Positions 23,180 through 46,786 of a stretch of 64,000 bases of DNA are shown here, piece by piece; the stretch's first letter is position 1, and every line of letters starts with the position of its first letter. The position numbers and the translations under genes were made by a program. Source of the DNA: SAR324 cluster bacterium (GTDB taxonomy: Bacteria > SAR324 > NAC60-12); the NCBI GenBank assembly GCA_014382365.1, contig JACNJW010000024.1, positions 225 through 64,224 on the forward strand, given 5' to 3'. Below the pieces are notes generated by a model, which was not told the origin of the DNA, did not search any database, and saw only the letters and a program-made list of their open reading frames with translations.

Positions 23180-23322
23180 TTTTAAAATTCACTTCAATCA
23201 TTTGACTTACAGGATAGTCTGATTTTATTAATATTTTCTTAAGTTATTTGGTTGTGGACTTAGCATTAAACTAGTAACCTGTATAATAACATTTTAAATT
23301 TAACACCATAAAGTACTAATCG

Positions 23323-23781
23323 ATGGCAGAAGTAGAATCTATTGAGAATCTGGATGACTTGGATTGGTCCGATGTTGAAAGTGAGTTAAAAGCCAATAGA
23401 GACCAAATTCTTGCTGAAGTTAAGGGTGATCAAAACAAAGATCCAGATGCAGCTCAAGACGGTGACAGTACACAGGAACAAAGTGGTTTGGATTCTACCG
23501 GAAACACTCCAGTCTCAAGCGGTGACATAGACATCAATTTCCTATTTGATGTACAACTCTCAATAGTTGTTGAGGTGGGACGTGTTCAAATGCTGGTCAG
23601 TGAGCTGTTGGATCTGGATGAAGAGTCGATCATTGAACTTGACAGCATGGTAGGCCAGCCTCTGGACATTCGTGCCAATGACTTACTCGTTGCTCGTGGA
23701 GAAGTCATTGTAGTTAACGAAAAATTTGCGGTACGCATCACGGATATCATAAGTCCGGACAATCGTTTTGCTGCACTCTGA
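23323..23781 (+). CDS. fliN: flagellar motor switch protein FliN
   Basis: C-terminal SpoA/FliN domain (VQLSIVVEVGRVQMLVSELLDLDEESIIELD...LLVARGEVIVVNEKFAVRITDII) with an acidic N-terminus. Confidence 0.8.
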   Translation: MAEVESIENLDDLDWSDVESELKANRDQILAEVKGDQNKDPDAAQDGDSTQEQSGLDSTGNTPVSSGDIDINFLFDVQLSIVVEVGRVQMLVSELLDLDEESIIELDSMVGQPLDIRANDLLVARGEVIVVNEKFAVRITDIISPDNRFAAL

Positions 23782-23792
23782 GAGAATTTAAC

Positions 23793-25019
23793 ATGAGTAT
23801 TGCGAGACCAGCATGGCTCAAATTAGGAATAGCGCTGGTATTATGGGCAAGCTGCTTGATGCTTGCTTCCGCAGCAGAAATACGTACACTCAGAAGTATA
23901 GAAGTAGTTCCTCTTGACAATATTGAAGAGTTACAACTTGAATTTGATACAGATTTTTTAGGAGAGCCACTAGTTAATTTTGAAGCCGGCTCAATGAGCT
24001 TGCGTCTTAATTCTGCTAACACAGCTCCTTCGCTCCCCTTATTGACAATTTCAAAAGACAGTTCTATTACCAAAGCAGTTCGTGTAGTCCAAGTTCCAAA
24101 CACAAATATTGTGCACTTGGATATTCTGTTCAAGTCCTCACGGATGCAGTTGAAGCACCCAGTTATAACCCACTCTAACAATTTTTTACTGATTAGTTTG
24201 ATCAGCAACAGTACTGCCAGCCCCGCTCTTTCCAACTCTGAATTACTGACTGAAGAAATTGAAAACCGTGTCAAGACTGATCCTTCTTTCACATCAACCT
24301 TTGCTCAAGAATCAACTGAAGTGGCACCCTTGAATAAAATAAGTGACCTTCTACCAATGCCTGCACAAAATTGGGGAGAAACTATGCTGACTCTGGTTTT
24401 ATCTCTGTTATTCGTCCTATTGTTGATATATTTAATAGCGTTTCTATACAACCGTTTCCTGAGTGGAAGGTTTCCAGCTATGCAGGGAAATGTAAGAATC
24501 CGTCAGGTATCCAGTTATCATGTTGGTCCAAAGCAAAAAATTGTTGTTTTTGAAATGAACGGTCGAATTTTCGCTTGCGGAGTAACTTCTTCTTCCATAA
24601 ATTTGATTGCTGAATTACATGATGAGTCTGATCAGGAATTTCTAAATTCAATTGAGACAAACGAAAATACTAATGAAATAGACTTGGACCGTACAAGAGC
24701 TAATTTCATAAAAACTCTTGACCCTGCCAAAAATAAAGCCAAAGCTAATATGGAGGAGACTGTCGGTCATAATGAAAACTTAGCGACTTCCATAGAACTA
24801 GAAGGATCTGAAGTTGAGCTGTTTATCAAAACTGGCTCAGAAAAAACACAAAGCCAAGTTAACTCTAAGAAAAACAAAAATGAGTTGTCAACTTCTGTTA
24901 GACCTCTTATTTCAAATAAACTGGCAAACAGAGCCCAGATGACTCATGGAAGCCAAATGATGCTGGACTTTGCCAGCAAATTATCCGAACGTCTAAAATT
25001 TTTAAAACCAATTAAATAA
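23793..25019 (+). CDS. fliO: FliO-domain protein with long N-terminal periplasmic extension and C-terminal tail
   Basis: Signal peptide and ~190 aa of unknown domain. Then a FliO-like TM (LTLVLSLLFVLLLIYLIAFLYNRF) and core (VRIRQVSSYHVGPKQKIVVFEMNGRIFACGVT). Then ~150 aa of polar tail. It occupies the fliO position between fliN and fliP. Confidence 0.6.
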   Translation: MSIARPAWLKLGIALVLWASCLMLASAAEIRTLRSIEVVPLDNIEELQLEFDTDFLGEPLVNFEAGSMSLRLNSANTAPSLPLLTISKDSSITKAVRVVQVPNTNIVHLDILFKSSRMQLKHPVITHSNNFLLISLISNSTASPALSNSELLTEEIENRVKTDPSFTSTFAQESTEVAPLNKISDLLPMPAQNWGETMLTLVLSLLFVLLLIYLIAFLYNRFLSGRFPAMQGNVRIRQVSSYHVGPKQKIVVFEMNGRIFACGVTSSSINLIAELHDESDQEFLNSIETNENTNEIDLDRTRANFIKTLDPAKNKAKANMEETVGHNENLATSIELEGSEVELFIKTGSEKTQSQVNSKKNKNELSTSVRPLISNKLANRAQMTHGSQMMLDFASKLSERLKFLKPIK

Positions 25020-25024
25020 GTCTC

Positions 25025-25870
25025 ATGCAGCAGCCTGACATAAAGAGACTCTTAATCCGCTACTGGGCAAAAACCAGACGATGTTTTGATGACATCAGTC
25101 CGGTTGTTCTCTCAACCTCATCAATGAAAGTTGTACCGGCCAGTTTACTGCTTCTGTTTTGTATTGGCTCTCCACTATTTGCACAATCTCCAATTCCGGG
25201 AATCAACATCAGTGTTGATTCAGCCAGTTCTCCTCAGCAGGTTGCAACTACTTTGCAGATTGTTTTTTTACTGACTGTGCTCACAATGGCACCTGCCATT
25301 TTGATCATGACTACTTCTTTCACACGTTTCGTGATTGTGTTATCATTTTTAAGACAAGCCATTGGTACACCTCAGGCACCTTCAAATCAAATCGTTGTTG
25401 GACTGGCACTGTTTCTTTCTCTTTTTGTAATGATGCCGGTATGGGAAGAAGTCAATCAGATGGCTCTTGCTCCTTATCTGGAGGAAACCATTTCGCAGCA
25501 AGAATTTATGGACCGTGCGGTTGTACCAATTAAACGTTTTATGGGTAATTTTACACGTGAAAAAGATTTGGCTTTGTTTGTTCGTATTGCAAAAATAGAG
25601 CAGCCAAAAAACATTGAAGATGTTCCCATCTGGGTCATGATACCAGCTTTTGTGATTAGCGAACTGAAGGCCGCATTCCAGATTGGTTTTTTACTTTACG
25701 TGCCTTTTCTGGTAATCGACATGGTTATAGCCTCAATCCTGATGGCAATGGGCATGATGATGATGCCGCCAGTGATGATTTCTTTACCATTCAAGCTAAT
25801 GCTATTTGTGCTGGTAGACGGCTGGCATTTGATACTTGGTTCTATGGTAAAAAGCTTTATGGAATTTTAG
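25025..25870 (+). CDS. fliP: flagellar export apparatus protein FliP
   Basis: Conserved FliP core (PAILIMTTSFTRFVIVLSFLRQAIGTPQAPSNQIVVGLALFLSLFVMMPV). Confidence 0.9.
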   Translation: MQQPDIKRLLIRYWAKTRRCFDDISPVVLSTSSMKVVPASLLLLFCIGSPLFAQSPIPGINISVDSASSPQQVATTLQIVFLLTVLTMAPAILIMTTSFTRFVIVLSFLRQAIGTPQAPSNQIVVGLALFLSLFVMMPVWEEVNQMALAPYLEETISQQEFMDRAVVPIKRFMGNFTREKDLALFVRIAKIEQPKNIEDVPIWVMIPAFVISELKAAFQIGFLLYVPFLVIDMVIASILMAMGMMMMPPVMISLPFKLMLFVLVDGWHLILGSMVKSFMEF

Positions 25871-25902
25871 CTTTTCATAAACAATTATTAGTAAGTTTAA
25901 TT

Positions 25903-26175
25903 ATGACAGAAGCACTTGTAGTCTCAATTATGATTGAAGCAATGAGGATGGCCACACTGCTGGCTGCACCAATGTTGATTGGCGCATTAGTAGTTGGTTT
26001 GCTTGTTTCCATCTTTCAAGCTGTGACACAAATTCAGGAACAAACACTGGCTATCATTCCTAAAATGGGTGCAATAATGGTAGTTTTAGCAGTACTATTT
26101 CCCTGGCTCCTTTCACAAGCCACTTCGTATATGGCAGGTATATTCACTAATCTCCCCAGATTCATTGGCGGCTGA
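25903..26175 (+). CDS. fliQ: flagellar export apparatus protein FliQ
   Basis: 90-aa two-TM protein with FliQ-like sequence. Directly follows fliP. Confidence 0.8.
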   Translation: MTEALVVSIMIEAMRMATLLAAPMLIGALVVGLLVSIFQAVTQIQEQTLAIIPKMGAIMVVLAVLFPWLLSQATSYMAGIFTNLPRFIGG

Positions 26176-30515: not shown

Positions 30516-31889
30516 TTAGCGCTTTGTTTCATTTTCTAATAATTGAAGAATTTCTTTCCGTCGGCTGAAAATGGCATAATTAACTGCTGTTTTCTTCTCA
30601 AAATCAAAAATACTTGAATCCCCTCCATTATTCAGCAGTAAACCTACAGCACCTAATCTTCCACTGCCGGCAGCCAGCATCAATGCTGTTTGCCCTTTAT
30701 TATTCTGCATGTTTACTTCTGCACCACGTTTTAACAATTCCCATAAGGCCTGCAAATTTCCTCTCTCTGCGGCCCACATGAGAGCAGTCCAACCTTCATG
30801 AGTTCTGGCATTCAAATTTGCCCTGGCTTTTAATAGCATCGTCAGCATCGAATAATTTCCGTGAAATGCCGCCCACATCAGCGGAGAAAAATTACCCTTA
30901 TCCGGATTAGCACCATGACTCAACAATAATTTTGCGATTGAAACATCTTCCAGTGAAGTGGCCCAAACTAGTGGTGATTCATTCACATCGTCTACTATAT
31001 CTACATTTGCTCCATGAACAACCAGTAGTTTGACCAGTTCTTTATTTTGCAGTTTGACTGCCTGCATCAAAGGTGTGTATCCATTCTGATCCCTTAATTC
31101 CAAGTCAACACCTGCGTCAAGTAAGAGTTGGACTTTAACCAGGTTTTGTTTTTTAACTTCCAGCATCAGAGAACTATTTGTCGCTACTTGAGCAATTTCA
31201 TTTTTCTGCAATATCTTATTTTCTGCCAAAGTAGATGAGTTGTCTTTGAGGAGCACTTGCTCTATTTTTCCTGACTGATAATCCGGCCAGAGCAAAACCA
31301 GTAGCACAATGGAAACGCCAGTTAAACTAAAAAACATAATCCAACCAAACAGCATCCAGCTTGTATATTTTACTGGTACTGTTTCCACTACAGTACTTAC
31401 TGCGTCAGGCTGATTTTCAACTAGTTCTGGTTCCAGCATTTCAGCAGAATTTCGTTTTATTTGAATCTCTTCAATTAGTTGATTTCCTGAACTTGTCTGC
31501 TCTTTAGAAAAGAAGGGTGTTGAAAAACGAGAAAAATATTTTGGTTTAATCGTAAACGTGTCTTTTAACTGTTGTTGCTGTTCAATAATTTGTGGTCTTC
31601 CTTCAGAAATAGACAACAGAATTGCCGGGTCAAGCTGAGAACTTCCTGAAATTGTAATTGGGATATTTTGAAGGCGAACATGCCTGATAAGTAATCCCAG
31701 TAACTCCTGAGTATCATGGCTTATGACTTGCAGATTGTTTAAATCAAGATTAACCTTTTGTGAGTTACTTGAAGCTATACTCCCTTCAAGAGCATGCATT
31801 GCCGGCTGAATGTCAACATGCCTCAACTCATCAACTACTTTCAAAGTTGCAATTTGATTTTTTTCAGTGAGAACAATGCGATTCAACAT
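30516..31889 (-). CDS. STAS-like domain / single TM / ankyrin-repeat protein
   Basis: N-terminal ~95 aa resembles an anti-sigma-antagonist-like STAS fold (LKVVDELRHVDIQPAMHALEG...KVNLDLNNLQVISHDTQELLGLL). One TM (MLFGWIMFFSLTGVSIVLLVLLW). At least 5 C-terminal ankyrin repeats (TPLMQAVK..., SPLVWAT..., SPLMWAAFHGN..., TALMWAAERGN..., TALMLAAGSGR). Confidence 0.65.
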   Translation of the reverse strand: MLNRIVLTEKNQIATLKVVDELRHVDIQPAMHALEGSIASSNSQKVNLDLNNLQVISHDTQELLGLLIRHVRLQNIPITISGSSQLDPAILLSISEGRPQIIEQQQQLKDTFTIKPKYFSRFSTPFFSKEQTSSGNQLIEEIQIKRNSAEMLEPELVENQPDAVSTVVETVPVKYTSWMLFGWIMFFSLTGVSIVLLVLLWPDYQSGKIEQVLLKDNSSTLAENKILQKNEIAQVATNSSLMLEVKKQNLVKVQLLLDAGVDLELRDQNGYTPLMQAVKLQNKELVKLLVVHGANVDIVDDVNESPLVWATSLEDVSIAKLLLSHGANPDKGNFSPLMWAAFHGNYSMLTMLLKARANLNARTHEGWTALMWAAERGNLQALWELLKRGAEVNMQNNKGQTALMLAAGSGRLGAVGLLLNNGGDSSIFDFEKKTAVNYAIFSRRKEILQLLENETKR

Positions 31890-31999: not shown

Positions 32000-32998
32000 A
32001 TGGAAAAGTTTATGCGCAGATATCTTGTGCTGCAATGCATCTTTGCTTTAATAATGACTACTGCACAGGCAGAAGAAGCAGTTTTTTGGAAAGACAGGCA
32101 AATCTCTCAATTAGAACAGTTGACACCCAGTCTAGTTGAAGCAGTTCAAAGTATGCAGTCAAAGATTAGTTCAGTTGCAATTTCAAGCATTTCTTATGGA
32201 GATGCACTGCCAGCTAGTTTTCGCAAAGTTGCTAATGCCCGTTTACAACAAACACTAACTAATCTCCTTAAGTTAAAAGTCAGTATTTGCGAACCGTGCA
32301 GTCAAATTCGAACCGACATTTCCGGTAGTTTCCTTAAAATAAGCCGCGGAATTGCTGATGACAAATATCGCCGTGAAGCTGCCAAAGAATTGAATGTAAA
32401 GGGGTTTTTAGATATTGCTATATTTACCAGTGATGGAGACCAACTTTCAATTTCACTAAATGCATACGAGGCAAAAGATGGAGAAATTGTATTTTCTAAA
32501 ATAGTTACGGGTATGCCGCCCAAAAGTGGTTCCTACATTCACGCCTTTTACGGTAAAATGACAGTCCCTATTACATACACTAGCACATCAACTGGAAGCA
32601 GTACCTCAGTAGATCACCAGGCCAGAGTTTTGGGTGCAGAAAAGATGGTGAGACTTACAGATGACTGGAGTTTTACCGGAGGCGGAGCAATGTTGAGCGA
32701 TGATAATTCCAATCTAACAGAAAAATACGAAAAAGCAATTACAGGATTTTTAATTGATGGCACTATCAGTTATGATGTTTTCAATTTTGGTGGTGATCAG
32801 GTTGCATTATCTATGATTGCAGGACTGGGTATGATGACCGTGACACCTTTTAACAATCCTTCTTATTTCAAAACAGGTTTCAGTTTCTCAGTAGCAGAAC
32901 AATTAACTCTTAATTACCATTACCTGGCAATGCTGACAACTGATACAAGCGCCACAGCCTCTGGTGCATCAATTATTTCAATTGGCTGGAAATTCTAA
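32000..32998 (+). CDS. hypothetical secreted protein, probable outer-membrane beta-barrel
   Basis: Signal peptide (IFALIMTTAQAEEA). Alternating hydrophobic pattern toward the C-terminus. C-terminal ...SIGWKF ending in Phe, as in OM beta-barrels. Confidence 0.5.
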   Translation: MEKFMRRYLVLQCIFALIMTTAQAEEAVFWKDRQISQLEQLTPSLVEAVQSMQSKISSVAISSISYGDALPASFRKVANARLQQTLTNLLKLKVSICEPCSQIRTDISGSFLKISRGIADDKYRREAAKELNVKGFLDIAIFTSDGDQLSISLNAYEAKDGEIVFSKIVTGMPPKSGSYIHAFYGKMTVPITYTSTSTGSSTSVDHQARVLGAEKMVRLTDDWSFTGGGAMLSDDNSNLTEKYEKAITGFLIDGTISYDVFNFGGDQVALSMIAGLGMMTVTPFNNPSYFKTGFSFSVAEQLTLNYHYLAMLTTDTSATASGASIISIGWKF

Positions 32999-33006
32999 TT
33001 TCAATC

Positions 33007-34359
33007 TTGAATTGTAACCAAATAAGTCGTGTCATGAAACTAACTGGCAAATTTAAATCATTTAGATCATTTTTAGCATATTTTTTAGTCAGTCTTATAC
33101 TGCTGAATGTACTTAACGGCTGCAAAACTACAGAAGAAACTGTAGAACCTGAGGTAGATCTTCCGGTAAAGAAAAAAGTGCTCTTCAATCAACAAACTGA
33201 TGGCGGCAAAAACTCTGTAACTGTGATTGAAGAAACACAAGGAAACAAAAGACTGCTGCGTGTGGTTTTACAACGCGGAGAACTGCAGTCAAACTTAATT
33301 CATCCAATTGACAGTCCAAACTTTGTAATAGCAGTACCTCTTCAGGATGCAACCAGCAAACGTTTAAGTTTAAAAACTGCTGCCTTCGAACAAAGTCTCA
33401 AAGTTAATATCGATCAATTGTTGTCACGTTATCTTTCGCCGGAACGTTTTAACGTATCTGTGATCATAAATTGGGACAAAAAATTGCTGCAGGAAGTACA
33501 GTTAAAAAACTTGCCCCTCAATTCTGATGCAGCAAAAAGTGATACTGATGATGATTTAACTGATGACGGTACAATTTCAGAAAGCACAAAGCGAAACCAT
33601 GAATTAAAAGAAGCCCTTAAAACAATTCAGGTTAGTGTCTTGCTCGATAACACTTTACCTGAAACGCAGGAACAATTTTTACGAAAATTAATACCTGCAC
33701 AGGAATTCTATTTTGCAGAACGTGGTGATACTGTTTCAGTCGAACGGACATCTTTTCCAAAACCATTTTCTGACAGTATTGCTCCATACGAGGAACAGAT
33801 TGTCCGGAGAAAATTACATGAGTTATTGGTAAAATATATTGCCAAAACTGATTTTGTGGTCAATGTAAAATTTTCTTTGATCCAAAGCAATGAAGAAACT
33901 AAAAATGCTCCACCTGCGTCCAGTAATATAAAAATGGAGATAAACTTACTCCTTGATGATACGGTTCTGCCAACTGTAGACACTTTCCTGAAAGAAGCAG
34001 TTCCACTGGCAATTAATTTTGATGCAGAGCGCGGAGATTCTCTTGCAATTATTCGTAAAAGTTTTCCTGAACGTTCTGACAGTTCAATCTCTCCAGAACA
34101 ACGAAGTGCACTAAAAGATTATCGAGTAAAAATACTTGAAGCTTTCCAGACAGGAGACTATGTTGCAGGACTCGAATGGGCAGAAAAGGGGTTGAAAGTA
34201 GCAGTGAAACGAACTGACAAAATTTTTATCTTAAAAATGAAAGGGTCTTTGCATTTTCTACTCGAAGAAAAAGATGAAGCTTTGGAGATGTGGCAGCATG
34301 TTCAGCGTTTAGATCCAAAAGATGAAGAAGTACGTCAAATGTTAAACAATCTGGAGTAA
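33007..34359 (+). CDS. hypothetical lipoprotein with internally duplicated domain and C-terminal TPR-like motif
   Basis: Probable start at the ATG at 33034 (MKLTGKF...LILLNVLNGC lipobox). Two copies of a ~90-aa module containing AERGD (FYFAERGDTVSVERTSFP / INFDAERGDSLAIIRKSFP). Terminus ALEMWQHVQRLDPKDEEVRQMLNNLE. Confidence 0.55.
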   Translation: MNCNQISRVMKLTGKFKSFRSFLAYFLVSLILLNVLNGCKTTEETVEPEVDLPVKKKVLFNQQTDGGKNSVTVIEETQGNKRLLRVVLQRGELQSNLIHPIDSPNFVIAVPLQDATSKRLSLKTAAFEQSLKVNIDQLLSRYLSPERFNVSVIINWDKKLLQEVQLKNLPLNSDAAKSDTDDDLTDDGTISESTKRNHELKEALKTIQVSVLLDNTLPETQEQFLRKLIPAQEFYFAERGDTVSVERTSFPKPFSDSIAPYEEQIVRRKLHELLVKYIAKTDFVVNVKFSLIQSNEETKNAPPASSNIKMEINLLLDDTVLPTVDTFLKEAVPLAINFDAERGDSLAIIRKSFPERSDSSISPEQRSALKDYRVKILEAFQTGDYVAGLEWAEKGLKVAVKRTDKIFILKMKGSLHFLLEEKDEALEMWQHVQRLDPKDEEVRQMLNNLE

Positions 34360-34362
34360 GGA

Positions 34363-35580
34363 ATGAGAAAATATACCGTTTCGGCTGCAGAGACATTTCT
34401 TTACAGAGTGCTGTTCCTGTCTCTGCTCATTTTTTGTTTGGCAGCTAATGCATCTGCACAGGTCACTTCAGAATCTGAAGATGAAGTACAAGCAGAAGAT
34501 CCTTCACCCGAAAAAGCTGCTGAAGCTGCTGAAAAAAAACAAACCCTTGAAGAATTACTTGCTGTTCCGTTTAACCAGATCAAGAAAGAGCAGGAAGAAG
34601 AAATTAGCAAATTTACTGATGGAAAAAGCGGAGATCTTCCAAACAGTAGTAAAAATGGAGATGTTAAATTACCTCCACCTCCGGAACAAAGAAAAGTAGA
34701 GCACGATTTAGAAAAACAGTTGGACGTTATTTTTCGGGAAAAGTTACCAAAGGAGTACGTTGGAGTTTCAGTAAGCATTCGTTATATTCTGGAAACCGTA
34801 CCTGTCACTAAACAGGACAAGAATATCTCAAAAATTAAATTACCTGGATTTGACAACAATGTCTGGGTGCCGACACAAACTGAAAAAATTGTTGGTATCG
34901 TAAATCAAGTACGTCCATACACTACAATTTTTGCAGTTGTAAACACTCCAGTTTCGTTGTTCAATGTTGAAGTACTGAGACAAACTCTCGATGAAAATAT
35001 TAAATTTCTCAATTTAACCGGCCGCGATGTACTCAAAATGGTGCATGTGCCTTTTACAACTCCAGCAAAATCTTCTGTAAATACTCTTGATAATGCAGCT
35101 GTTGAACTGGTTGAGACTGAGAATGATGATGCTGAAGAAGAAAAGTCAGCAGATTCTGAACTTGATAATAGTACTGAAAAAGAAGCTGAGACTAAAGAGT
35201 ATGCAGGGACATTAAATACAGAAGAGCCGGATGCAGCTAATAAAGAAAATGCTGGAGAAAAAACAGAAGAAAATACTGACGCAGTTTTGGAATCTGATCC
35301 TGAACCCCGTCGAATAGACATGAAAGCCAAAGTTGAAACCACACGCTATTTGCTGCAGGCACGAAAAACATACATGCAGGAAGACTATGATGCAGCAATT
35401 ACAGCACTCCGTAGAGCAATAGAACTTAATCCATTTTCTTCACAAGCTTTTGCCATGCTGGGTTCAATCTACTATAGACTTGGATGGAACAGAATGGCAT
35501 TAGAGAACTGGCAGCATGCTCTTAAACTTGATCCAACAAATGAGGGTCTGAAAAAATATCTCATGCGTTTTTCCAGGTAA
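34363..35580 (+). CDS. hypothetical periplasmic protein, acidic linker and C-terminal TPR-like motif
   Basis: Signal peptide (LLIFCLAANASAQV). Acidic low-complexity region (DDAEEEKSADSELDNSTEKEAETKE...). The terminus ALENWQHALKLDPTNEGLKKYLMRF is paralogous to the terminus of the preceding gene. Start is 4 nt after the previous stop. Confidence 0.55.
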   Translation: MRKYTVSAAETFLYRVLFLSLLIFCLAANASAQVTSESEDEVQAEDPSPEKAAEAAEKKQTLEELLAVPFNQIKKEQEEEISKFTDGKSGDLPNSSKNGDVKLPPPPEQRKVEHDLEKQLDVIFREKLPKEYVGVSVSIRYILETVPVTKQDKNISKIKLPGFDNNVWVPTQTEKIVGIVNQVRPYTTIFAVVNTPVSLFNVEVLRQTLDENIKFLNLTGRDVLKMVHVPFTTPAKSSVNTLDNAAVELVETENDDAEEEKSADSELDNSTEKEAETKEYAGTLNTEEPDAANKENAGEKTEENTDAVLESDPEPRRIDMKAKVETTRYLLQARKTYMQEDYDAAITALRRAIELNPFSSQAFAMLGSIYYRLGWNRMALENWQHALKLDPTNEGLKKYLMRFSR

Positions 35581-35582
35581 GA

Positions 35583-37544
35583 ATGACAACCAAATTTTAT
35601 TTTTATCAAATTAATAACAAACCAATTAAGCTACCTGTTATTTTCCTTCAGATATTTATCTGCACACTATTTTTGTTATGGCTCAGTCCATTTACCTCTG
35701 TACAGGCACAGGAACGTGTCAAGTCACTCAGTATCCGTCAATTTGAAATAGAAGAAGCAATCCGTAACGGACTCAAATATTATCTTGAACCCAAAGATTA
35801 TGTTTTACGGGTAAAATTGTTTGGTCAGGAGCGTGCAGTAAGTATGGCAAATGAAACCCTTCCGGGATTTGGTCAACTTAACGAACCTCCGAGTACCAGT
35901 AGTGCTAAATACTGGCAAATTACTCGAATGCGCGTAGATTTGGTCATGCATAAAGAAGTTTCACCTTCAGTAAATACTTATATTGGAGAAATCGTTCCAA
36001 TCCTCAGTGGACTTGATTATGAGCGTGGAGATGAGCTAATTTTTGTTCCAATTTTACCCAGCGATCCATTTCCTGGACAACTGGGCTCTGCTGCTGAGGA
36101 TTTACCTGACCCACTGGCTAAAGCTGTTCCTGAAGAAGTTCCTGCCGCAAAAATATCAGAAAAAGATAAAAAGCCGACAGAGGAAGAGGTAGATCCTCTT
36201 ACCGAAGAGACTGGTGAACCAAAAGAAGAATCACCAATTTGGCAGAGAATGAATGACATTGAAAAAATTCTTGCTGGAATGCTGCTCTTTTTGATCCTCT
36301 TATTTTTCTGGGTTCTCTGGAAACTGAGAAGAGTAAAAGCCGAGTCAACTGAACAAGCTGATTTGCCGGCCCTGATGCCGCCGAATCAACATACTCCACA
36401 ACTGCCTGCAGCAACTCCGCATGGTTTTGTCTCCTTTCCTGATCCAAATGATAAACTACTGGAAAATCAAGATCAACAGGAATCACAACTGAATGATGCT
36501 CTGCTCACAGCAGATAATGAGCGTCTCATACAGGAGATTGTTAAGCAACTCATAGGTCGAGATGACTGGAAACAAGAATTAGTCCATGAAATGTCCCGGG
36601 ACAAGCAGTCGATGGATATGTTGACACAGCTTATTGCTATTTTGGGAATGAATACTTCCAGAAAACTTTTTACAGGAACAATTCCACAAAAAACATTTTT
36701 GGATCTGGAAAAATTGGCTGAAGATGCCTCTCCTTCTCCAGAGGATGAAAATGCTGTTTTAAAAGATGTGCAGAAGTTTTTTCTCACCAAGCAGTTGACA
36801 GATCCTGAACAGAACAAAACAAACCCCTTTGGCTTCATGGACCAGTTGGCAACAGCTCAAATAGGATTTCTGGTAAAAGATGAGCCTGCAAAAATAAAAG
36901 CTTTTGTATTTGGACGTATGGAAAGTGAAGAGGCCGCAGAGTTGTTACGTGAACTTCCAAAAGATGAGCGTACAAAAGTTGCCTTAGAACTTGGTAAACT
37001 TCATGAATTTCCTCTGGAACTGGTTGAAAAAATTGGTTACAACCTTGCAGAAAAAGCTCGGCATGTTCCGGATCAGGGAACAGTTGGAGTTGATGGAATA
37101 AAATTCATTGCTGATGTTCTTGGCGACTTAGACTACAATACAAGACAAGAATTGATCAACGGATTAAGAACATCAGATATAAAACTTAGCGAAAATATTG
37201 AAAGTCATTGTTTTATTTTTGAGTCGATACCTGATGTCCCAAAAGATATTTTGCTGGAAGTTGTGCGAAAATTAAAACCTGATGATGTTATTACTGCAAT
37301 TTCAGGTTCAACTTCAAAAATCAAAGAAGCTGCAATCATGTGTTTTCCTGAAAAAAGCCGTGCTGCGCTAGTTTCCTCTTTAAAAACTAAATCTCCGGAT
37401 TCAGAAGAAATTCGTTCTGCACGAAAATTATTTACACAATCTATGCGGGATATGGCTGATGCAGGTCGGCTTAATCTTCAGGAAGTGAATACAAATTTTG
37501 CTAACAGCAGCAAAGAGCCTGAATCCAAAAAAGGACAATCCTAA
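35583..37544 (+). CDS. inner-membrane protein with periplasmic N-domain and cytoplasmic FliG-like (rotor middle/C-terminal) domain
   Basis: Signal peptide (…LSPFTSVQAQE). ~190-aa periplasmic part with DYERGDELIFVPILP. TM (ILAGMLLFLILLFFWVLWKL+RRVK). Cytoplasmic part has armadillo-like segments matching the FliG pattern: GRMESEEAAELLRELPKDERTKVALELGKL resembles the FliG N/middle G.E.AA.LL..L pattern, and DGIKFIADVLGDLDYNTRQELINGL...IESHCFIFESIPDVPKDILLEVVRKLKPDDVITAISGSTSKIKEAAIMCFPEKSRAALVSSL resembles the FliG GG...LN.LD...MFVFEDI...LLREV...L..AL.G....L...IL.NMS.R.A..L tract. Confidence 0.55.
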   Translation: MTTKFYFYQINNKPIKLPVIFLQIFICTLFLLWLSPFTSVQAQERVKSLSIRQFEIEEAIRNGLKYYLEPKDYVLRVKLFGQERAVSMANETLPGFGQLNEPPSTSSAKYWQITRMRVDLVMHKEVSPSVNTYIGEIVPILSGLDYERGDELIFVPILPSDPFPGQLGSAAEDLPDPLAKAVPEEVPAAKISEKDKKPTEEEVDPLTEETGEPKEESPIWQRMNDIEKILAGMLLFLILLFFWVLWKLRRVKAESTEQADLPALMPPNQHTPQLPAATPHGFVSFPDPNDKLLENQDQQESQLNDALLTADNERLIQEIVKQLIGRDDWKQELVHEMSRDKQSMDMLTQLIAILGMNTSRKLFTGTIPQKTFLDLEKLAEDASPSPEDENAVLKDVQKFFLTKQLTDPEQNKTNPFGFMDQLATAQIGFLVKDEPAKIKAFVFGRMESEEAAELLRELPKDERTKVALELGKLHEFPLELVEKIGYNLAEKARHVPDQGTVGVDGIKFIADVLGDLDYNTRQELINGLRTSDIKLSENIESHCFIFESIPDVPKDILLEVVRKLKPDDVITAISGSTSKIKEAAIMCFPEKSRAALVSSLKTKSPDSEEIRSARKLFTQSMRDMADAGRLNLQEVNTNFANSSKEPESKKGQS

Positions 37545-38732: not shown

Positions 38733-39113
38733 ATGAATGTAAATCAAGCCAGTAACTCATTTCTGCATGAAAAATCTGTGAATGGTGTTCAGCAACTTTC
38801 TCCATTTTCCGGATCTCACAAACTATCATTTGAAAATATCCGCAGTTTTCGCCAACAGTTTGAAGAAGGAAGTACCACATTGCGCTCTGTTTTAGGCGAT
38901 GCTCAACATCAGACAATGCTTGTTGCAATGTATGAAGGCACAGAAAAATTGTTAAATCAGGAGATTCCAGAATTTGCCGTACTTACTTATCTTGAAGGAC
39001 TAAAACTGACTGCCAGAGATTTGCGACAACAAGGACTATCAGGAGAAAATTTCCGTACATCTCTGCTTGAACATTCAGCCTCAACTGTTCGTGATCTGGT
39101 CCGCTCTTCTTAA
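38733..39113 (+). CDS. hypothetical protein
   Basis: 126-aa ORF on the opposite strand between two minus-strand genes. No recognisable motif. Coding status uncertain. Confidence 0.3.
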   Translation: MNVNQASNSFLHEKSVNGVQQLSPFSGSHKLSFENIRSFRQQFEEGSTTLRSVLGDAQHQTMLVAMYEGTEKLLNQEIPEFAVLTYLEGLKLTARDLRQQGLSGENFRTSLLEHSASTVRDLVRSS

Positions 39114-41041: not shown

Positions 41042-41791
41042 ATGTTGGGAAAGAAAGTCATAAATTTAAAACAATACTTCTTGGTAGGCTTGTTTGTATC
41101 AGCATTTTTTTTGGCATTAAATACTACCACAGCATACGCAGAAGAACAGCCCATTGCCTTCAGTCATAAACTTCACACAGTACAAAACGGAATTGCCTGT
41201 CAATATTGCCACCTTTATGCACGCCGCTCTTTTTCATCAGGAGTTCCACCTGTCAGTACCTGTATCGGTTGTCATGGTCCCAAAGAACAAAAATTAGTGC
41301 AGCCTGACAGCAAAGAGGTCAATAAGATGCGAACTTTTTGGTCTGATAAAGAACCTATTCCATGGGTCAAAATACATGACGTACCGGATTTTGTTCGTTT
41401 CCCTCATAAAGAGCACATTAATGCCGACAGCAATCGATTACTGGATGATGCCGGAGCAGGATGTGACACTAAAAATGCACCTCGCAGTTTAGAATGCAAG
41501 TTGGCTCAGTTCAGGACTGGAGGTGACCAACGTTGTCTGGCCTGTCATGGAGATGTTCGTCAAATGGAAGTAATCACACAGGTTGATGAAAATTTTGGTA
41601 AAATGGGCTGGTGTATGGAGTGTCACCTGCAGGTGAAAGGTGCCAAAGAAAGGAAACGTACAGGAAGTACAATTGCCGGTTGGTATCACGCCAAAGAAAT
41701 GGACAAAAAACGTGAAGCTGCAATTGGATTAGTAAATGAAAAAGGTTATCACAACCCAAATATGCTTGACTGCTACACCTGCCATTATTAA
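41042..41791 (+). CDS. actA: alternative complex III subunit ActA, pentaheme cytochrome c
   Basis: N-terminal TM anchor and five CxxCH motifs (CQYCH, CIGCH, CLACH, CMECH, CYTCH). First gene of the actABCDEF series. Confidence 0.85.
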   Translation: MLGKKVINLKQYFLVGLFVSAFFLALNTTTAYAEEQPIAFSHKLHTVQNGIACQYCHLYARRSFSSGVPPVSTCIGCHGPKEQKLVQPDSKEVNKMRTFWSDKEPIPWVKIHDVPDFVRFPHKEHINADSNRLLDDAGAGCDTKNAPRSLECKLAQFRTGGDQRCLACHGDVRQMEVITQVDENFGKMGWCMECHLQVKGAKERKRTGSTIAGWYHAKEMDKKREAAIGLVNEKGYHNPNMLDCYTCHY

Positions 41792-41806
41792 AGCTAAGAG
41801 AGAAAA

Positions 41807-44779
41807 ATGAAGAAGGGCCTCAGCCGAAGAAATTTATTCAAATATGTGGGTGCCGGCAGTGCAACTGCTGTTGTTGCTGGTTGTGAAAACAAACCGGAAA
41901 AATTAATCCCCATGTTGGTTCCGCCAACGGATTATGAATATACTCCGCAGACTGCATACCAATACATGACCACCTGCAGAGAATGTGATGCAGCTTGTGG
42001 AATGATGGTCACAACCCGGGAACATCGAGCCCAGAAAGCAGAAGGAAACCCCAATCACCCGCTAAATCAAGGGGCACTCTGCGCAAAAGGGCAAGCTTCA
42101 TTACAAACTCTCTACAATCCCAGCAGACATGCCTATCCACTGGCAGATGGGAAAAAGATTCCATGGCAAGAAGGCCTGCAACAGTTTTCTGCACTGACTC
42201 AAACAGCAGCAGGTGCAATAGCTTACCTGGGTAAACCTGCCGTTGGCAGTGAGGGAGACTTTCTGGACGAATGGCTGCAGGCGGCAGGCGGAGGAAAACG
42301 TGTAGATTTTGAGCTGTTGTCACAAAACAGTCAGGTTGAGGCAAATCAAATTGCTTTTAACCGTGCCGATGTTCCAGAATACGCTTTTGAAAAAGCAGGT
42401 TTAATCCTCAATTTCAGTGCCGATTTTCTCGAAACGTGGGGGAATCCTGTCGAAAATGCACGACGTTTTGCAGATATGCATGCCTACCAAAAAGGCAACA
42501 AAAATAAATTCGTCCATATCTCTCCACACGTTTCTCTGACAGGAGCAAAAGCTGACCGTTGGGTAGTAATTAATCCGGGAACCGAAGGCTTGGTCGCTTT
42601 AGCAATTGCTGCAGTTATTCAGCAGGAAAATGGAAGTCACACATTCCTCAAGGCTTACCTCGAATCATACTCTCCGGAAAACGTGGCAGAGGAAACAGGA
42701 GTTTCTGCTGAAGCCATTAGAGGTCTTGCAAAAGAGGCACTGGAACATGGACCTTTACTGGCAATTGGCGGTGGCAATGTATCTGCAACAAAGCAGAGTG
42801 TTGAAACTCTGGTTGCAGTAAATATATTAAATGCTGTCTCCGGAGCACTTGACAAGACACTTCGTTTTTATAACCAAACTGCTGTTAAAAAATCAACTCA
42901 TCAGGATCTGTTAGAGTTAATCAGTGATCTCGATGCCGGAAAAATAAAACTACTCATCATTGACGATTCCAATCCTGTTTATGCTCTTCCTCCTTCAATG
43001 GGATTTGCCGAAGCTATAAAGAAGACTTTCGTGGTCAGCCTGGCCTCCCAAAAGAGTGAAACAACACACGAGGCAAATCTGGTTTTACCTGCATTGACAG
43101 CCTATGAAAGCTGGGGAGATGCATTCCCGCGAAGTGGAGTAAAAAGTATTCAACAGCCTGTGATGTCAGCAGTGAATACCTTTGACGCAAAAGCCCGTGA
43201 AGATATTTTAATAAATACAGTTCAAAGCATAGATAAAACGGCATTCTCTGGAAATTCGAATTATCTGGATTTTCTTCAAGATAAATGGAGTAAAATTCAA
43301 CGTGAACTTGGAGACACAAGAAGTTTCGAAAATTTCTGGATTAGTATTTTAGAAAACGGTGGGATCTATGAGAAACCAAAATTCGCTCGAACAGCTTTAA
43401 GCAGAAAAGTTACTGCTGTCAAAGTCAGTAGTCCTGAGTTAGTCGGCCAAGAAGGTTTGACGCTGTTGCCCACAACTTCACTTCTTCTAGGAGACGGTAG
43501 TGGCGCCAACAAGCCCTGGTTGCAGGAAGTTCCCAACCCGATGAGTCAGATTGTATGGGATTCATGGGTTGAAATTAATCCGGACACAGCACAAAAACTT
43601 GGAATCAATGACCGTGCGATAATTGAGGTAAAGACACCTCATGGCTCTGTACAGGCTACTGCTTATTATCATTTTGGTATTCACAGGGATGCAATTGCAA
43701 TCCCTATGGGACAAGGACATCAACATTCCGGAGAAGTGGCTGACGGTTTCGGAATCAATGTGATGCAACTCTTGCCTGGCGAATTTGACAACGCCGGTAA
43801 TCTAAGCTTCGTTGGTGTACAAGCTGAGCTGAAGCTGATCAATGAAAAATCGTACACCGTTAATACAGACGGAAATGCCAGACAGTTGGGTCGGGAGATT
43901 GCTGCAGCAACTACTGTTGAAGAATTGGCACATCCTGAAAATCATGGAAGTGCACACAAGCGTCCAACTGAATTTTATCCTGACCGTTCAGAAACAGCTG
44001 GTTATTACAAACCATACCGCTGGGGAATGACGATTGATTTGGACCGTTGTAACGGTTGTTCCGCCTGTGTTGTTGCCTGCTATGCAGAAAACAATATACC
44101 AGTTGTTGGAAAAATCAGAACTGCAATTGGGCGAGAAATGTCCTGGATTCGTATGGAACGTTACATTGAAGGCTATGGCGACGATTTTGAAACACGTTTT
44201 TCTCCAATGCTTTGTCAGCAATGCGGAAATGCCGGTTGCGAAACAGTATGTCCTGTCTATGCCACATATCATAATCCTGAAGGATTGAACGCAATGATCT
44301 ATAACCGTTGTGTTGGTACACGCTACTGTTCTAATAACTGTGCATATAAGGTGAGACGATTCAACTGGTTTAACTACGAATTTCCTGCTCCGCTGGATCA
44401 ACAATTGAATTCGACAATCACTACACGAGAAGTTGGAGTGATGGAAAAATGTACATTCTGTGTACAGCGTATTAAAACTGCAAAATATGATGCAAAAGAT
44501 CTTAGCCGTGATTTGGAAGATGGTGAAGTTTTGACAGCATGTCAGCAGACTTGTCCCACGAAAGCCATTACCTTTGGAAACTTGATGGATCCGGAGAGTA
44601 AGGTTGCCAAAAGCGCTTTGCGGGAAACTGCAGATAAAAGGGACCGCCAATATGAAGTGCTTGCTGAATTAAATTACAAACCTGCCATTACCTACCTGAA
44701 AAAAGTTAACACCAGAGAGGTTCTCGGTCACAATTCAGAAAACCACGATTCTCATCAAAATTCAGAAAATCACGGATAA
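41807..44779 (+). CDS. actB: alternative complex III subunit ActB (fused molybdopterin-oxidoreductase-like B1 + 4Fe-4S ferredoxin-like B2)
   Basis: Tat signal RRNLFKYVGAGSATAVVAGC. MopB-like domain without an obvious Mo-ligand context. C-terminal multi-cluster Cys motifs (CNGCSACVVAC, CQQCGNAGCETVCP, CVGTRYCSNNC, CTFCVQRI). Confidence 0.85.
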   Translation: MKKGLSRRNLFKYVGAGSATAVVAGCENKPEKLIPMLVPPTDYEYTPQTAYQYMTTCRECDAACGMMVTTREHRAQKAEGNPNHPLNQGALCAKGQASLQTLYNPSRHAYPLADGKKIPWQEGLQQFSALTQTAAGAIAYLGKPAVGSEGDFLDEWLQAAGGGKRVDFELLSQNSQVEANQIAFNRADVPEYAFEKAGLILNFSADFLETWGNPVENARRFADMHAYQKGNKNKFVHISPHVSLTGAKADRWVVINPGTEGLVALAIAAVIQQENGSHTFLKAYLESYSPENVAEETGVSAEAIRGLAKEALEHGPLLAIGGGNVSATKQSVETLVAVNILNAVSGALDKTLRFYNQTAVKKSTHQDLLELISDLDAGKIKLLIIDDSNPVYALPPSMGFAEAIKKTFVVSLASQKSETTHEANLVLPALTAYESWGDAFPRSGVKSIQQPVMSAVNTFDAKAREDILINTVQSIDKTAFSGNSNYLDFLQDKWSKIQRELGDTRSFENFWISILENGGIYEKPKFARTALSRKVTAVKVSSPELVGQEGLTLLPTTSLLLGDGSGANKPWLQEVPNPMSQIVWDSWVEINPDTAQKLGINDRAIIEVKTPHGSVQATAYYHFGIHRDAIAIPMGQGHQHSGEVADGFGINVMQLLPGEFDNAGNLSFVGVQAELKLINEKSYTVNTDGNARQLGREIAAATTVEELAHPENHGSAHKRPTEFYPDRSETAGYYKPYRWGMTIDLDRCNGCSACVVACYAENNIPVVGKIRTAIGREMSWIRMERYIEGYGDDFETRFSPMLCQQCGNAGCETVCPVYATYHNPEGLNAMIYNRCVGTRYCSNNCAYKVRRFNWFNYEFPAPLDQQLNSTITTREVGVMEKCTFCVQRIKTAKYDAKDLSRDLEDGEVLTACQQTCPTKAITFGNLMDPESKVAKSALRETADKRDRQYEVLAELNYKPAITYLKKVNTREVLGHNSENHDSHQNSENHG

Positions 44780-44810
44780 CAAAATGATTCAAGGAGCATA
44801 CGGAGCATAA

Positions 44811-46268
44811 ATGGGAACAACTGCGGAATATAACGCAACCGCCGGAAAGGTGGTCATTGATGAGCATCAAGGGCATCCTGGAATCAAGGCTACCACCTTG
44901 GATTACGGACAGATTAATGATGAGATGCTGGCAATGCTGGACAAGCCGCGTCCTTCATACTACCTTTTGCTGCTTGGTTTTTTAATGGCTTTGGGACTTG
45001 GTGCATTGAGTCTGGCTATTCAAGTAGATGTAGGTATTGGCTACAGCGGAATCAGTCATCCTATTGCCTGGGGTTTTTATATTACAAACTTCGTTTTCTG
45101 GATTGGAATTGGCCACGCAGGAACTTTGATATCTGCAGTATTTTATCTGACTCGAGCACCATGGAGAACAGCAATTTACCGCAGTGCAGAAGCCATGACA
45201 GTTTTTGCCGTGATGACAGCAGGGCTTTTCCCCTTGCTGCACACAGGACGCCCATGGCTGGCCTACTGGTTGATTCCATATCCAAATGAAAGGATGCTCT
45301 GGGTCAATTTCAAGTCTCCACTTGTCTGGGATGTCTTTGCAGTCACAACCTACATGTCCGTTTCAATCATGTTTTTCATGCTGGGTTTGATTCCGGACAT
45401 GGCAATTTTACGTGATGAAGCAATTCGAAAAGGTAAAAAACTAAAAGCTCTGATTTATGCCCCAATGGCTTTAGCCTGGCGAGGTACTAACCATCAGTGG
45501 ATACATTACATGCGTGGATATTTAATTTTTGCCGCATTGGCAACACCGCTTGTATTTTCGGTACACTCCATTGTTTCCTGGGACTTTGCAATGTCTTCTG
45601 TTCCAGGTTGGCACACCACCATCTTTGCACCATATTTTGTAGCTGGAGCAATTTTTTCCGGACTTTCCATGGTAATGACTGTTTTGATTCCAATGCGAGC
45701 AGTCTTTGGTTTACAGGATTACATCACAAATCATGTAATACAAAGCGTTTCAAAGATGATTATTTTTACTTCAATGATTGTCGGCTACGCTTATGCTTCT
45801 GAATTTTTCATTGGTTATTACAGCGGAAGTCCTTTTGAGCGGGCGATTTTTTACTACCGTCCTTTTGGTGAAATGGAAAGTTGGACTTTATTAGGAGAAA
45901 ATCAAATCAACTTTCCACAAATTGCATTTTGGCTGATGGTTTTTTGCAACGTGATTGCACCAATACCTCTCTGGCGCTGGAAAATCAGAAACAATGCCTT
46001 AGCAGTTTGGATAATCACAATTTTTGTCAATATTGGAATGTGGTTTGAGCGTTTTAATATTGTCGGCAGTTCATTACAACACGAATACGATCCTGCAGCC
46101 TGGGGTGAATACTGGCCAACTGTAGTTGAAGTAGGCATCACTGTTGGCAGTTTCGGATTCTTTTTTACACTTTTTACTTTATTTGCCAAGAGTTTACCAC
46201 CAATGGCAATAATGGAGTTGAAAGAAGCAACTAATCCTCCTATGAGAAACGCTGCAAAAGGTCACTAA
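44811..46268 (+). CDS. actC: alternative complex III subunit ActC (NrfD/PsrC-like polytopic membrane, quinone-interacting)
   Basis: 485 aa, about 10 TM helices, NrfD-family-like. Position in the operon. Confidence 0.8.
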   Translation: MGTTAEYNATAGKVVIDEHQGHPGIKATTLDYGQINDEMLAMLDKPRPSYYLLLLGFLMALGLGALSLAIQVDVGIGYSGISHPIAWGFYITNFVFWIGIGHAGTLISAVFYLTRAPWRTAIYRSAEAMTVFAVMTAGLFPLLHTGRPWLAYWLIPYPNERMLWVNFKSPLVWDVFAVTTYMSVSIMFFMLGLIPDMAILRDEAIRKGKKLKALIYAPMALAWRGTNHQWIHYMRGYLIFAALATPLVFSVHSIVSWDFAMSSVPGWHTTIFAPYFVAGAIFSGLSMVMTVLIPMRAVFGLQDYITNHVIQSVSKMIIFTSMIVGYAYASEFFIGYYSGSPFERAIFYYRPFGEMESWTLLGENQINFPQIAFWLMVFCNVIAPIPLWRWKIRNNALAVWIITIFVNIGMWFERFNIVGSSLQHEYDPAAWGEYWPTVVEVGITVGSFGFFFTLFTLFAKSLPPMAIMELKEATNPPMRNAAKGH

Positions 46269-46786
46269 TGAGTAAATTTACAGGAGTATGGGCAATTTTT
46301 GAATATCTGGATGAGACCACAGAAACCATTGAACAAGTTCGTAAAGAGGGTGTTCAACCAACTGTGATCTCTCCATGTCCGCGCCACGAAATTGACCATG
46401 CATTGGGAGAACCAACTACAATTGTTCCCTGGATTGCTTTGGCGTTTGGGGCACTAGGTTGTTTTATTGGTTACAGTTTACCAGCCTGGACTGCTTCAGA
46501 CTGGGTTTTGCCTGTCAGTGGAAAGCCCATCGTAGCAATTCCGCCATTCACTATAATTGGTTTTGAGTTAACAATTTTGTTTGCAGCAATCCACACATTA
46601 GCAGGTCTGGCACTTTTAGGAATAATAGACTCATTTCGTTTCCCTATACCAAAAGGGGCAAAAGACTATCCTCGTTTTCAGCGAGATCGTTTTGGAGTTG
46701 TGGTTCGGTGTGAAGAATCCAAACTGGAAGAGTTTGAGAACCTCATGAAAAAGAATGGTGCAGAGGAGGTTCATGTTGAAAAATAG
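46268..46786 (+). CDS. actD: alternative complex III subunit ActD
   Basis: 172 aa with TM helices. Overlapping start/stop (ATGA) with actC. Position in the operon. Confidence 0.7.
   Translation: MSKFTGVWAIFEYLDETTETIEQVRKEGVQPTVISPCPRHEIDHALGEPTTIVPWIALAFGALGCFIGYSLPAWTASDWVLPVSGKPIVAIPPFTIIGFELTILFAAIHTLAGLALLGIIDSFRFPIPKGAKDYPRFQRDRFGVVVRCEESKLEEFENLMKKNGAEEVHVEK

Follow-up and report, generated by a model that had tools for sequence, protein, structure and literature searches.

The DNA analysed here, called the window throughout, is a 64-kb stretch from a marine SAR324 cluster bacterium. Within it, four open reading frames (ORFs) on the + strand, genes A, B, C and D (32000-37544), form an operon that apparently encodes an undescribed variant of the flagellar rotor-stator core. 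The last of the four proteins joins a ring-building motif (RBM) of the FliF RBM3 type, a transmembrane (TM) helix and FliG in one chain. The genes are:

32000..32998, + strand, gene A, 332 amino acids (aa), the operon's first gene (ORF list)
33007..34359, + strand, gene B, 450 aa from a TTG start, more likely 441 aa from Met10 at 33034
34363..35580, + strand, gene C, 405 aa (ORF list, Pfam, hhalign)
35583..37544, + strand, gene D, 653 aa, the operon's last gene, FliF(RBM3)-TM-FliG(N, M, C) fusion

The intergenic gaps are 3 nt between B and C, 2 nt between C and D, and 8 nt between A and B if B starts at the TTG, or 35 nt if it starts at Met10. Given that B is 100% identical to database protein P0001 of GCA_016784405.1, which has 441 aa, translation of B probably starts at Met10 (33034). 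No terminator-like sites were found on the + strand within the A-D block, and a search for promoter and terminator signals at A-D returned nothing informative.

An earlier note on this DNA had claimed that B contains two copies of a ~90-aa periplasmic module, that B and C share a C-terminal motif, and that the FliG-like protein downstream, D, carries a related element. The segments concerned, as delimited in the present analysis, are:

33367..33786, + strand, B module 1 (aa 121-260), a split RBM with a long acidic insert between beta1 and beta2, and AERGDTVSVERTSFP at its end (Pfam, hhalign)
33778..34089, + strand, B module 2 (aa 258-361), a compact RBM ending in AERGDSLAIIRKSFP (shuffles, hhalign)
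34093..34356, + strand, C-terminal TPR of B, about two repeats, ending in ALEMWQHVQRLDPKDEE
34684..35073, + strand, C module (aa 108-237), a diverged RBM with an LPGF insert loop and with TGRDVLKMVHVPF replacing ERGD
35305..35577, + strand, C-terminal TPR of C, ending in ALENWQHALKLDPTNEG
35718..36086, + strand, periplasmic RBM of D (aa 46-168), with an LPGF loop between beta73-85 and beta109-122 and with beta151-155 containing DYERGDELIFVP (AlphaFold2, Foldseek)

Local similarity was measured as the Smith-Waterman score against 500 shuffles, and profiles were compared by hhalign on ortholog alignments, the orthologs of A-D coming from 35 SAR324-phylum loci. As the loci were collected with SAR324-type alignment patterns, the collection holds SAR324-phylum loci and one canonical FliG locus only. 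The two copies within B, marked by AERGDTV at aa 237 and AERGDSL at aa 340, were borne out by both approaches: B 141-270 aligned to B 271-385 with a score of 112 versus 29.8 ± 5.2 for shuffled sequences (z = 16; 0/500 as high), and hhalign matched module 1 to module 2 with a probability of 98.7% (E = 2.6e-16). The element in D was recovered as well, with D 41-170, which includes DYERGD, scoring 104 against B module 2 (26.6 ± 4.5 when shuffled; z = 17) and each B module matching D with 98% in hhalign. The C-termini of B and C scored 75 versus 23.7 ± 4.3 (z = 12), and their TPR profiles matched with 98.9% (E = 1.2e-17). Pairwise alignment did not detect the module in C, whereas profiles did: C aa 108-237, which carries TGRD, matched B module 1 with 95% (E = 3.6e-8) and D with 90.7% (E = 1.3e-6). 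Negative controls, in which TPR or N-terminal regions were compared with the module, gave 0.04-3.3%. Because the profile matches include the segment of C, the observation is not only confirmed but extended to four module copies in three adjacent proteins, two in B, one in C and one in D; the copy in the middle protein had been overlooked. The module has the layout alpha-beta-[variable insert]-beta-alpha-beta and is longer than first thought, about 105-140 aa. Paralogy through a common periplasmic module, as the earlier note had it, is therefore upheld by shuffle z values of 12-17, hhalign probabilities of 90-99% and clean controls. Chance or composition might be invoked on the grounds that acidic low-complexity linkers occur in B, C and D and that TPR repeats match each other widely. 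However, LPG and RGD are conserved residues in ordered, confidently modelled regions, and since the shuffles (0/500), the profile E-values of 1e-6 to 1e-17 and the controls rule out a compositional origin, we hold the probability of this explanation to be practically nil.

The module corresponds to a known fold. In Pfam, B 174-250 matches PF08345 (YscJ_FliF_C, "Flagellar M-ring protein C-terminal") with 27.6 bits at a gathering cut-off of 23.8 (E = 4.5e-6). Searched individually, C and D of the window gave no match to PF08345; YscJ_FliF_C was matched at E <= 0.01 by 7 of 40 sampled members of the D family, the best at 7e-8. A hidden Markov model (HMM) of B module 1 picks up aa 244-415, the RBM3 region, of a 538-aa ORF in the Firmicutes locus L039; this ORF, with the canonical FliG-like match ~0.3 kb further downstream, is presumably FliF. 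An AlphaFold2 model of D, built from a diverse 40-sequence alignment, reached a mean pLDDT of 82, with the RBM above 90 outside its loop and with the topology H49-64, E73-85, loop, E109-122, H128-142, E151-155 (H, helix; E, strand). When this model was compared with the PDB by Foldseek, the matches to its periplasmic domain were solely FliF S-ring/RBM3 structures (8z5v, 8z4g, 8z4d, 6sd1, 7bk0 and others; E = 2e-3 to 2e-2, probability 1.00, target TM-score 0.4-0.5). The model of B, which was used for secondary structure and weak support only, has the same secondary-structure order twice, with module 2 reading H250-269, E274-282, E299-308, H314-326, E336-342 in model numbering, and Salmonella FliF chains come first among its Foldseek matches (7bk0_B, E = 6e-5, 295 columns). 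B module 1 has a long, acidic insert separating beta1 from beta2; in C and D this insert is short and contains LPGF. Since Pfam, the predicted fold of D, Foldseek and the HMM of B module 1 agree, the module is a ring-building motif (alpha-beta-beta-alpha-beta) of the FliF RBM3 type, and its copies are homologous to each other and to FliF RBM3. The checks proposed with the earlier note, namely self-comparison against shuffles, structure prediction and a Pfam search, thus speak for the module, which scores above shuffles and maps to one ring-building fold. The idea of a new domain has to be given up, as the above-threshold match to PF08345 and the Foldseek matches to the FliF S-ring identify a known fold, here in new paralogs.

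B consists, in this order, of a beta-rich N-terminal domain, RBM modules 1 and 2 and the C-terminal TPR. Its lipobox, LNGC in the window and L-S-G-C in the ortholog consensus, ends at Cys39 and is conserved in the marine clade; elsewhere in the SAR324 phylum a lipobox is found in some further lineages and a plain signal peptide in others. The number of modules in B orthologs also varies, being two in some lineages and one in others, and the duplication is therefore lineage-specific. Marine SAR324 sequences with more than 82% identity to B saturated the list of its homologs. The N-terminal domain of B is located as follows:

33166-33369, + strand, B N-terminal beta-rich domain with four strands (aa 54-121), present in part of the SAR324 phylum only

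This domain had no family match; by eye it looks AMIN-like, without a Pfam match. It was considered as a further module copy and rejected (hhalign < 4%). In C a signal peptide (ASA/Q) and an N-terminal linker precede one RBM module, which an acidic low-complexity linker connects to the C-terminal TPR, and the module is present as a single copy in every C ortholog. By hydropathy, neither B nor C has a TM helix beyond the signal peptide. The TPR of C is above the Pfam cut-offs (TPR_2 40.5 bits, cut-off 27; TPR_11 39; TPR_1 36). That of B is below them (16.8 bits), but in the PDB consensus TPR proteins are matched by B 380-448 at E = 4e-15. The terminal TPR motif is kept in all C orthologs, and a W-x-x-A-L-x-L-D-P end motif recurs in the TPR partner of every clade, for example as WNRALELDP in L043. 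The TPR-like 'WQH-x-L-x-LDP' C-terminus pointed out earlier is indeed TPR, the motif being merely the end of the last repeat, kept across clades. The Agl-Glt gliding machinery was also considered and rejected, the sole Glt match being that of C to GltC with 17 bits versus a cut-off of 450, via the TPR.

D is a natural fusion of a signal peptide (VQA/QE), one RBM3-like domain, one TM helix and a complete FliG with its N, M and C domains. Downstream of the RBM it contains:

36249..36356, + strand, D TM helix (aa 223-258) by hydropathy, helix 225-258 in the model, followed by KLRRVK
36444..37514, + strand, D cytoplasmic FliG part: N-like helical domain aa 288-406, FliG_M 417-498, FliG_C 505-644

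The KLRRVK directly after the TM helix places the C-terminal part in the cytoplasm, and the TM region weakly resembles that around TM2 of Salmonella FliF (445-487, E = 0.12). The cytoplasmic part is all-helical in the AlphaFold2 model and matches FliG_C with 49.9 bits (cut-off 23.3; 4.3e-13) and FliG_M with 41.7 bits (cut-off 25; 1.4e-10) in Pfam, as well as the FliG-MC structure of T. maritima in the PDB (E = 1e-13). The top Foldseek match of D is full-length A. aeolicus FliG (3hjl; E = 3e-10, 333 columns), and the N-like domain is assigned by fold. At 61 bits D stays below the cut-off of 226.7 of the FliG equivalog TIGR00207 (NCBIfam). The FliG hinge MFxF is retained as CFIF, with F546 conserved at 87%. 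The torque-helix residue R281 of E. coli aligns, with a register uncertain by two residues, to K591, a position at which 89% of 116 family members have a basic residue; R593 hardly varies within the SAR324 clade.

A search for the D family among 1.84 billion representatives yielded 1875 homologs at E <= 1e-3 and 281 at <= 1e-10, and a profile search with distant D-like proteins yielded 11 proteins. Most of the best 150 homologs are 550-780 aa long and have the RBM, compared with ~330 aa for FliG, and FliG_M plus FliG_C were present in 40/40 sampled members. Across the 116 family members, LPG (97-99%) and RGD (80-97%), both periplasmic, are the top conserved residues, alongside a few FliG positions. 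The family comprises at least three larger sequence clades, and its members are named "FliG C-terminal domain-containing protein" by NCBI, the organism labels encountered being 'Deltaproteobacteria bacterium TL4' and 'Pseudomonadota bacterium'.

The fourth protein, A, has a signal peptide (AQA/EE), a periplasmic N-terminal domain with CxxC, and a beta-rich C-terminal half ending in IGWKF; from its sequence, it is probably an outer-membrane beta-barrel protein. A C-terminal FGxxF with terminal Phe, as is usual for outer-membrane barrels, is present in 24 of 25 SAR324-phylum orthologs and in L041. The only Pfam match of the window protein is a weak one to OMP_b-brl (E = 0.003). Among 13 orthologs the matches, all below the curated cut-offs, were to OMP_b-brl in 3 (best 8.7e-5), FlgO in 2 (best 0.006) and CsgG in 1 (0.02), and a PDB profile search with A gave no match. 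A always adjoins B-C-D, and A homologs adjoin D-like genes in other clades. The cysteine pair lies at:

32288-32299, + strand, CxxC pair of A (C97/C100, aa 97-100), nearly invariant

The SAR324 phylum and clade I, described below, keep the pair, which is absent from L043 of clade II; it may form a disulfide or a metal site.

In the gene neighbourhoods of relatives, namely divergent members of the SAR324 phylum and two metagenomic clades, the D family is tightly linked to flagellar-type motA-motB. Every SAR324-phylum locus of sufficient length has the order A-B-C-D, even where identity drops to 25-30%, and in 11 divergent loci of the phylum motA-motB lies directly upstream of A or downstream of D. 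In L028 the genes read motA-motB-A-TPR lipoprotein-B-C-D with overlapping stops and starts, flanked by HlyD, flavoprotein and RF3 genes. Clade I (metagenomic; L040, L041, L051, L052, L053) has the order TPR lipoprotein-D-MotA-MotB, with an A-like gene ahead of the TPR gene in the subclade of L041 and L053, while clade II (metagenomic; L043, L047) has D, an A-like protein, a signal-peptide TPR protein, MotA and MotB. The recurrence of the same parts in different orders across clades argues for one functional system. The cluster MotA proteins match flagellar MotA/PomA structures at about 1e-25, and not ExbB/TolQ; the equivalent of E98 is kept in all of them and that of R90 in all but the clade II MotA of L043. 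The MotB proteins have a plug and an OmpA-like domain. No flagellar genes were found in the flanks of L028, L020, L038, L040, L051 and L052, no cluster contains genes for export apparatus, rod, hook or filament, and neither fliM nor fliN within a cluster nor linkage to fliE/flgB/flgC, flhA or fliM was found. The PADLOC anti-phage defence models (Zorya ZorA/ZorC/ZorD and others) did not match A-D; cluster MotB matches ZorB merely as a generic MotB, and MotA not at all or marginally (E = 0.0017).

Other genes adjoin these clusters. In a clade I subclade, genes for a MoxR-type AAA protein and DUF58 directly follow MotB (L040 13496-17039, L051 12534-14386, L052 12672-16302), in L040 and L052 DUF4381, VWA and pilin-like (N_methyl) genes come next, and the three neighbourhoods otherwise differ; this Bat/MoxR-VWA-like gene set may belong to the same system as D-MotAB. 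In L020 ('Deltaproteobacteria bacterium TL4'; 11296-15904) two genes that begin where motB ends encode large secreted proteins (789 and 693 aa; CarboxypepD_reg, Calx-beta and LapA domains), and the products are possible cargo or surface partners of the machine. The clade II MotB of L043 (5259-6356, 365 aa) carries an extra C-terminal TPR behind its OmpA-like domain, which suggests TPR-TPR or TPR-stator contacts as part of the system.

The presence of four RBMs and a full FliG in one operon raises the question whether D, B and C jointly serve as the true MS-ring and rotor of the SAR324 flagellum, split over several proteins and standing in for canonical FliF and FliG. Such a reading could also appeal to the JGI label FliF/YscJ on B-like proteins and to the resemblance of B, a lipoprotein with two RBMs, to SctJ (PMC4768692). 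The module and FliF RBM3/S-ring are alike in the alpha-beta-beta-alpha-beta fold with an insert between beta1 and beta2 and in a common ending '(E/K)RGD-x-hydrophobic-x-hydrophobic ... F-P'; in D, as in FliF, the domain directly precedes a TM helix, and B shares with SctJ/PrgK, the inner-ring lipoprotein of the injectisome, the two tandem RBMs. The layout of FliF (two TMs, RBM1-RBM2-RBM3, beta-collar, C-terminal FliG-binding tail) is not found in D, which has a single RBM with a ~23-aa loop and, where FliF has TM1, a probable cleavable signal peptide; no Pfam match to YscJ_FliF (RBM1/2) was found in A-D. The insert of 20-50 aa contrasts with the ~110-aa beta-collar of FliF. B and C are soluble or lipid-anchored with TPR tails, the family signature is an LPG(F/L) loop, and unlike those of SctJ/PrgK the modules of B are RBM3-type, without a YscJ_FliF match, in a protein with a TPR tail and outside an injectisome context. 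Likewise, D resembles FliG in its N/M/C folds, in the MFxF-type hinge, in the basic residue at the torque-helix Arg and in the MotA/MotB adjacency of its relatives, but it is covalently fused to a membrane ring module, has DEPA for EHPQ and has lost the acidic torque pair. A split MS-ring is further contradicted by the missing linkage to fliE/flgB/flgC, flhA and fliM, by the loss of the FliM-binding EHPQ, by the TIGR00207 score and by the non-flagellar neighbourhoods of the clusters, and we regard it as highly improbable. A fliF/fliG list is absent from the supplementary tables of PMC4782131.

The nearest natural precedent for D is the FliF-FliG fusion of Chlamydiaceae (Bergeron 2016; PMC4768692), in which a single natural chain likewise combines periplasmic RBM(s) and a TM helix with a FliG-like region in the cytoplasm. 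At ~330 aa, the chlamydial protein has an RBM2-like and a second RBM and a FliG_M-like region only; it occurs outside a complete flagellar system, and no linked MotAB was reported (PMC4768692). Compared by description, D differs in its ~650 aa, its one RBM3-like domain and full FliG, and its MotAB, TPR and outer-membrane partners. Ring assembly is on record for engineered FliF-FliG fusions from Salmonella and Vibrio (8z4d; PMC11481574), and a fusion of the kind of D can therefore be ring-competent.

Taking homology and gene order together, the reading that we favour, and consider fairly probable, is that A-B-C-D encodes a rotor-stator envelope machine without rod and export apparatus, derived from or ancestral to the flagellar motor. 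More tentatively, it could be a free-standing rotary motor made of a minimal FliF(RBM3)-FliG ring, its own MotA/MotB stators, periplasmic RBM-TPR rings and an outer-membrane partner; with the same reserve, such a motor could be widespread in SAR324 and other uncultivated bacteria, either as a surviving relative of a pre-flagellar core or as a flagellar motor repurposed for some envelope process. In the proposed mechanism D would oligomerise via its RBM into an inner-membrane ring, as FliF does, which would thereby display a ring of FliG domains to MotA/MotB stators, and ion flow through the stators would exert torque on this ring. Further RBM rings, built by B and C, would sit on the D ring or encircle it, and the TPR tails of B and C would reach other components, perhaps protein A or the MotB periplasmic domain. 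With A in the outer membrane, the whole would be an envelope-spanning, motor-like machine without type III export, rod, hook or filament. The view proposed at the outset, that the module is a repeated oligomerisation domain from which a periplasmic scaffold is made, is still a reasonable one, except that the unit is a four-gene operon with a FliF-RBM3/FliG fusion.

Several points weigh against this proposal. The mechanism is drawn wholly from homology and gene order, and the model of B, built from 34 close homologs, is of low confidence (pLDDT 47). The FliM-binding EHPQ motif of T. maritima aligns to D433-E434-P435-A436 (DEPA) of D, in which E434 is 95% conserved in the family and the His and Gln of EHPQ are not kept, and the acidic torque-helix pair D288/D289 of E. 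coli aligns, with the register uncertainty given above, to Ser-Ser in D (Ser/Ala-type residues). With EHPQ replaced by DEPA and the acidic pair lost, any contact of D with a stator would be non-canonical. Free rotation is hard to picture if the lipid-anchored B is rigidly bound to D. Finally, there is no motA/motB within the 64-kb window, and as motAB does not adjoin the operon in the clade of the window the stator would be encoded elsewhere, while a flagellar operon is located ~6 kb upstream of A-D:

21139-26175, + strand, small flagellar operon: SLT (lytic transglycosylase), fliL x2, fliN, fliO, fliP, fliQ

These last two facts keep a role in the SAR324 flagellar motor alive. A-D might then be a lineage-specific accessory scaffold, periplasmic and outer-membrane, of an ordinary SAR324 flagellar motor, arranged around a canonical MS-ring with extra stators and with D as an additional FliG-bearing ring. 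Besides the nearby flagellar genes and the lack of adjoining motAB in the window clade, this fits with the weak FlgO matches of A and with the report that most flagellar genes are present in marine SAR324 genomes, dispersed among conserved hypotheticals (PMC4782131, PMC4749706). Known scaffolds likewise join a lipoprotein, an outer-membrane protein and TPR proteins around a rotor-stator pair (PMC13023049). Such a combination is shared by the stator scaffolds of Campylobacter (PflA/PflB, FlgP/FlgQ), Vibrio (FlgO/P/T), the spirochete FlcA collar and MotC/MotK, and by analogy A, B and C may work like the periplasmic stator scaffolds or outer rings of complex motors. However, these scaffolds all belong to true flagella, the weak FlgO matches of A are the only sequence link to them that was found, and the divergent relatives carry their own motAB amid non-flagellar genes. 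In the window itself the operon is separated from the fli genes by lon, tauE, udk and an opposite-strand ankyrin gene. A FliG or RBM3 paralog is part of none of the known accessory scaffolds: the PflA/PflB, FlgP/FlgQ, FlgO/P/T, FlcA and MotC/MotK proteins are not known to include an RBM3 paralog, and a membrane-anchored second FliG ring has no known precedent in imaged motors. We judge this role rather unlikely.

The lipid anchor of B, which argues against a freely spinning stack, leads to a variant that is hard to separate from the rotary reading, in which there is no continuous rotation. MotAB would act as in Tol-Pal, TonB or GldLM systems, its rotation being caught by the FliG of D and passed via D, B and C to A, and the output could be outer-membrane maintenance, transport or the movement of surface proteins. 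The outer-membrane component A with its TPR and lipoprotein partners and without axial parts, the adhesin-like secreted proteins encoded directly after MotB in L020, and the MoxR-DUF58-VWA genes after MotB in clade I are all in keeping with force transduction of this sort. The stator, however, is of the flagellar type, with plug, OmpA domain, E98 always and R90 nearly always kept, rather than of the ExbB/TolQ type, and a complete FliG on an RBM3 ring module is a true rotor part in every studied case. We consider this alternative distinctly unlikely, and retain the rod-less rotor-stator machine as the reading to be followed.

Literature searches found no published description of the A-B-C-D system, and the D family is not mentioned in a study of MotAB evolution (PMC12505986), an E-ring review (PMC13023049) or the LBCA flagellum preprint. 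The cluster bears on the old question of the role of FliF, FliG and MotAB before export apparatus, rod and filament existed, because it combines a torque-generating core (ring module, FliG and flagellar-type stator) with envelope partners and has no secretion or axial parts, and it has been kept in three sequence clades from uncultivated bacteria, the SAR324 phylum among them. If autonomous, it would point to a new kind of ion-driven envelope machine and offer a compact experimental system in which to study how rotor and stator couple and how rings assemble, with one rotor protein in place of FliF, FliG, FliM and FliN. If it is instead part of the SAR324 flagellum, it would be an elaboration of the motor from MS-ring paralogs that has no known precedent. 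Either way, 'hypothetical' or 'FliG C-terminal domain-containing' labels can be improved.

Further features of the window are:

14904-16340, + strand, coiled-coil protein of 478 aa, with weak sub-threshold matches including FliD_C (E = 3e-5)
30516-31889, - strand, ankyrin membrane protein with ~5 ankyrin repeats and a ~230-aa N-terminal domain, divergent from gene A
38733-39113, + strand, 126-aa ORF between heptosyltransferase and PmbA/TldD genes
41042-48733, + strand, Alternative Complex III-like gene cluster

In the small flagellar operon upstream, the tandem FliL paralogs have 167 and 206 aa, FliN has 152 aa and FliO is unusually long (408 aa); fliM is absent between fliL and fliN, and fliQ is followed by lon instead of fliR or flhB. 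The coiled-coil protein might be a flagellar cap or hook-associated protein. All close marine SAR324 relatives keep the N-terminal domain and the position of the ankyrin protein; conservation is weaker in L016 and goes no further. An ankyrin gene close to the L051 cluster was considered as its counterpart and dismissed, the similarity being through the repeats alone. The Alternative Complex III-like cluster encodes a multihaem cytochrome c, a molybdopterin/Fe-S subunit, an NrfD-like subunit, ActD, a cytochrome c and another membrane protein. The 126-aa ORF, which is without a Pfam match, is found at the same position in marine SAR324 relatives with 62-74% identity.

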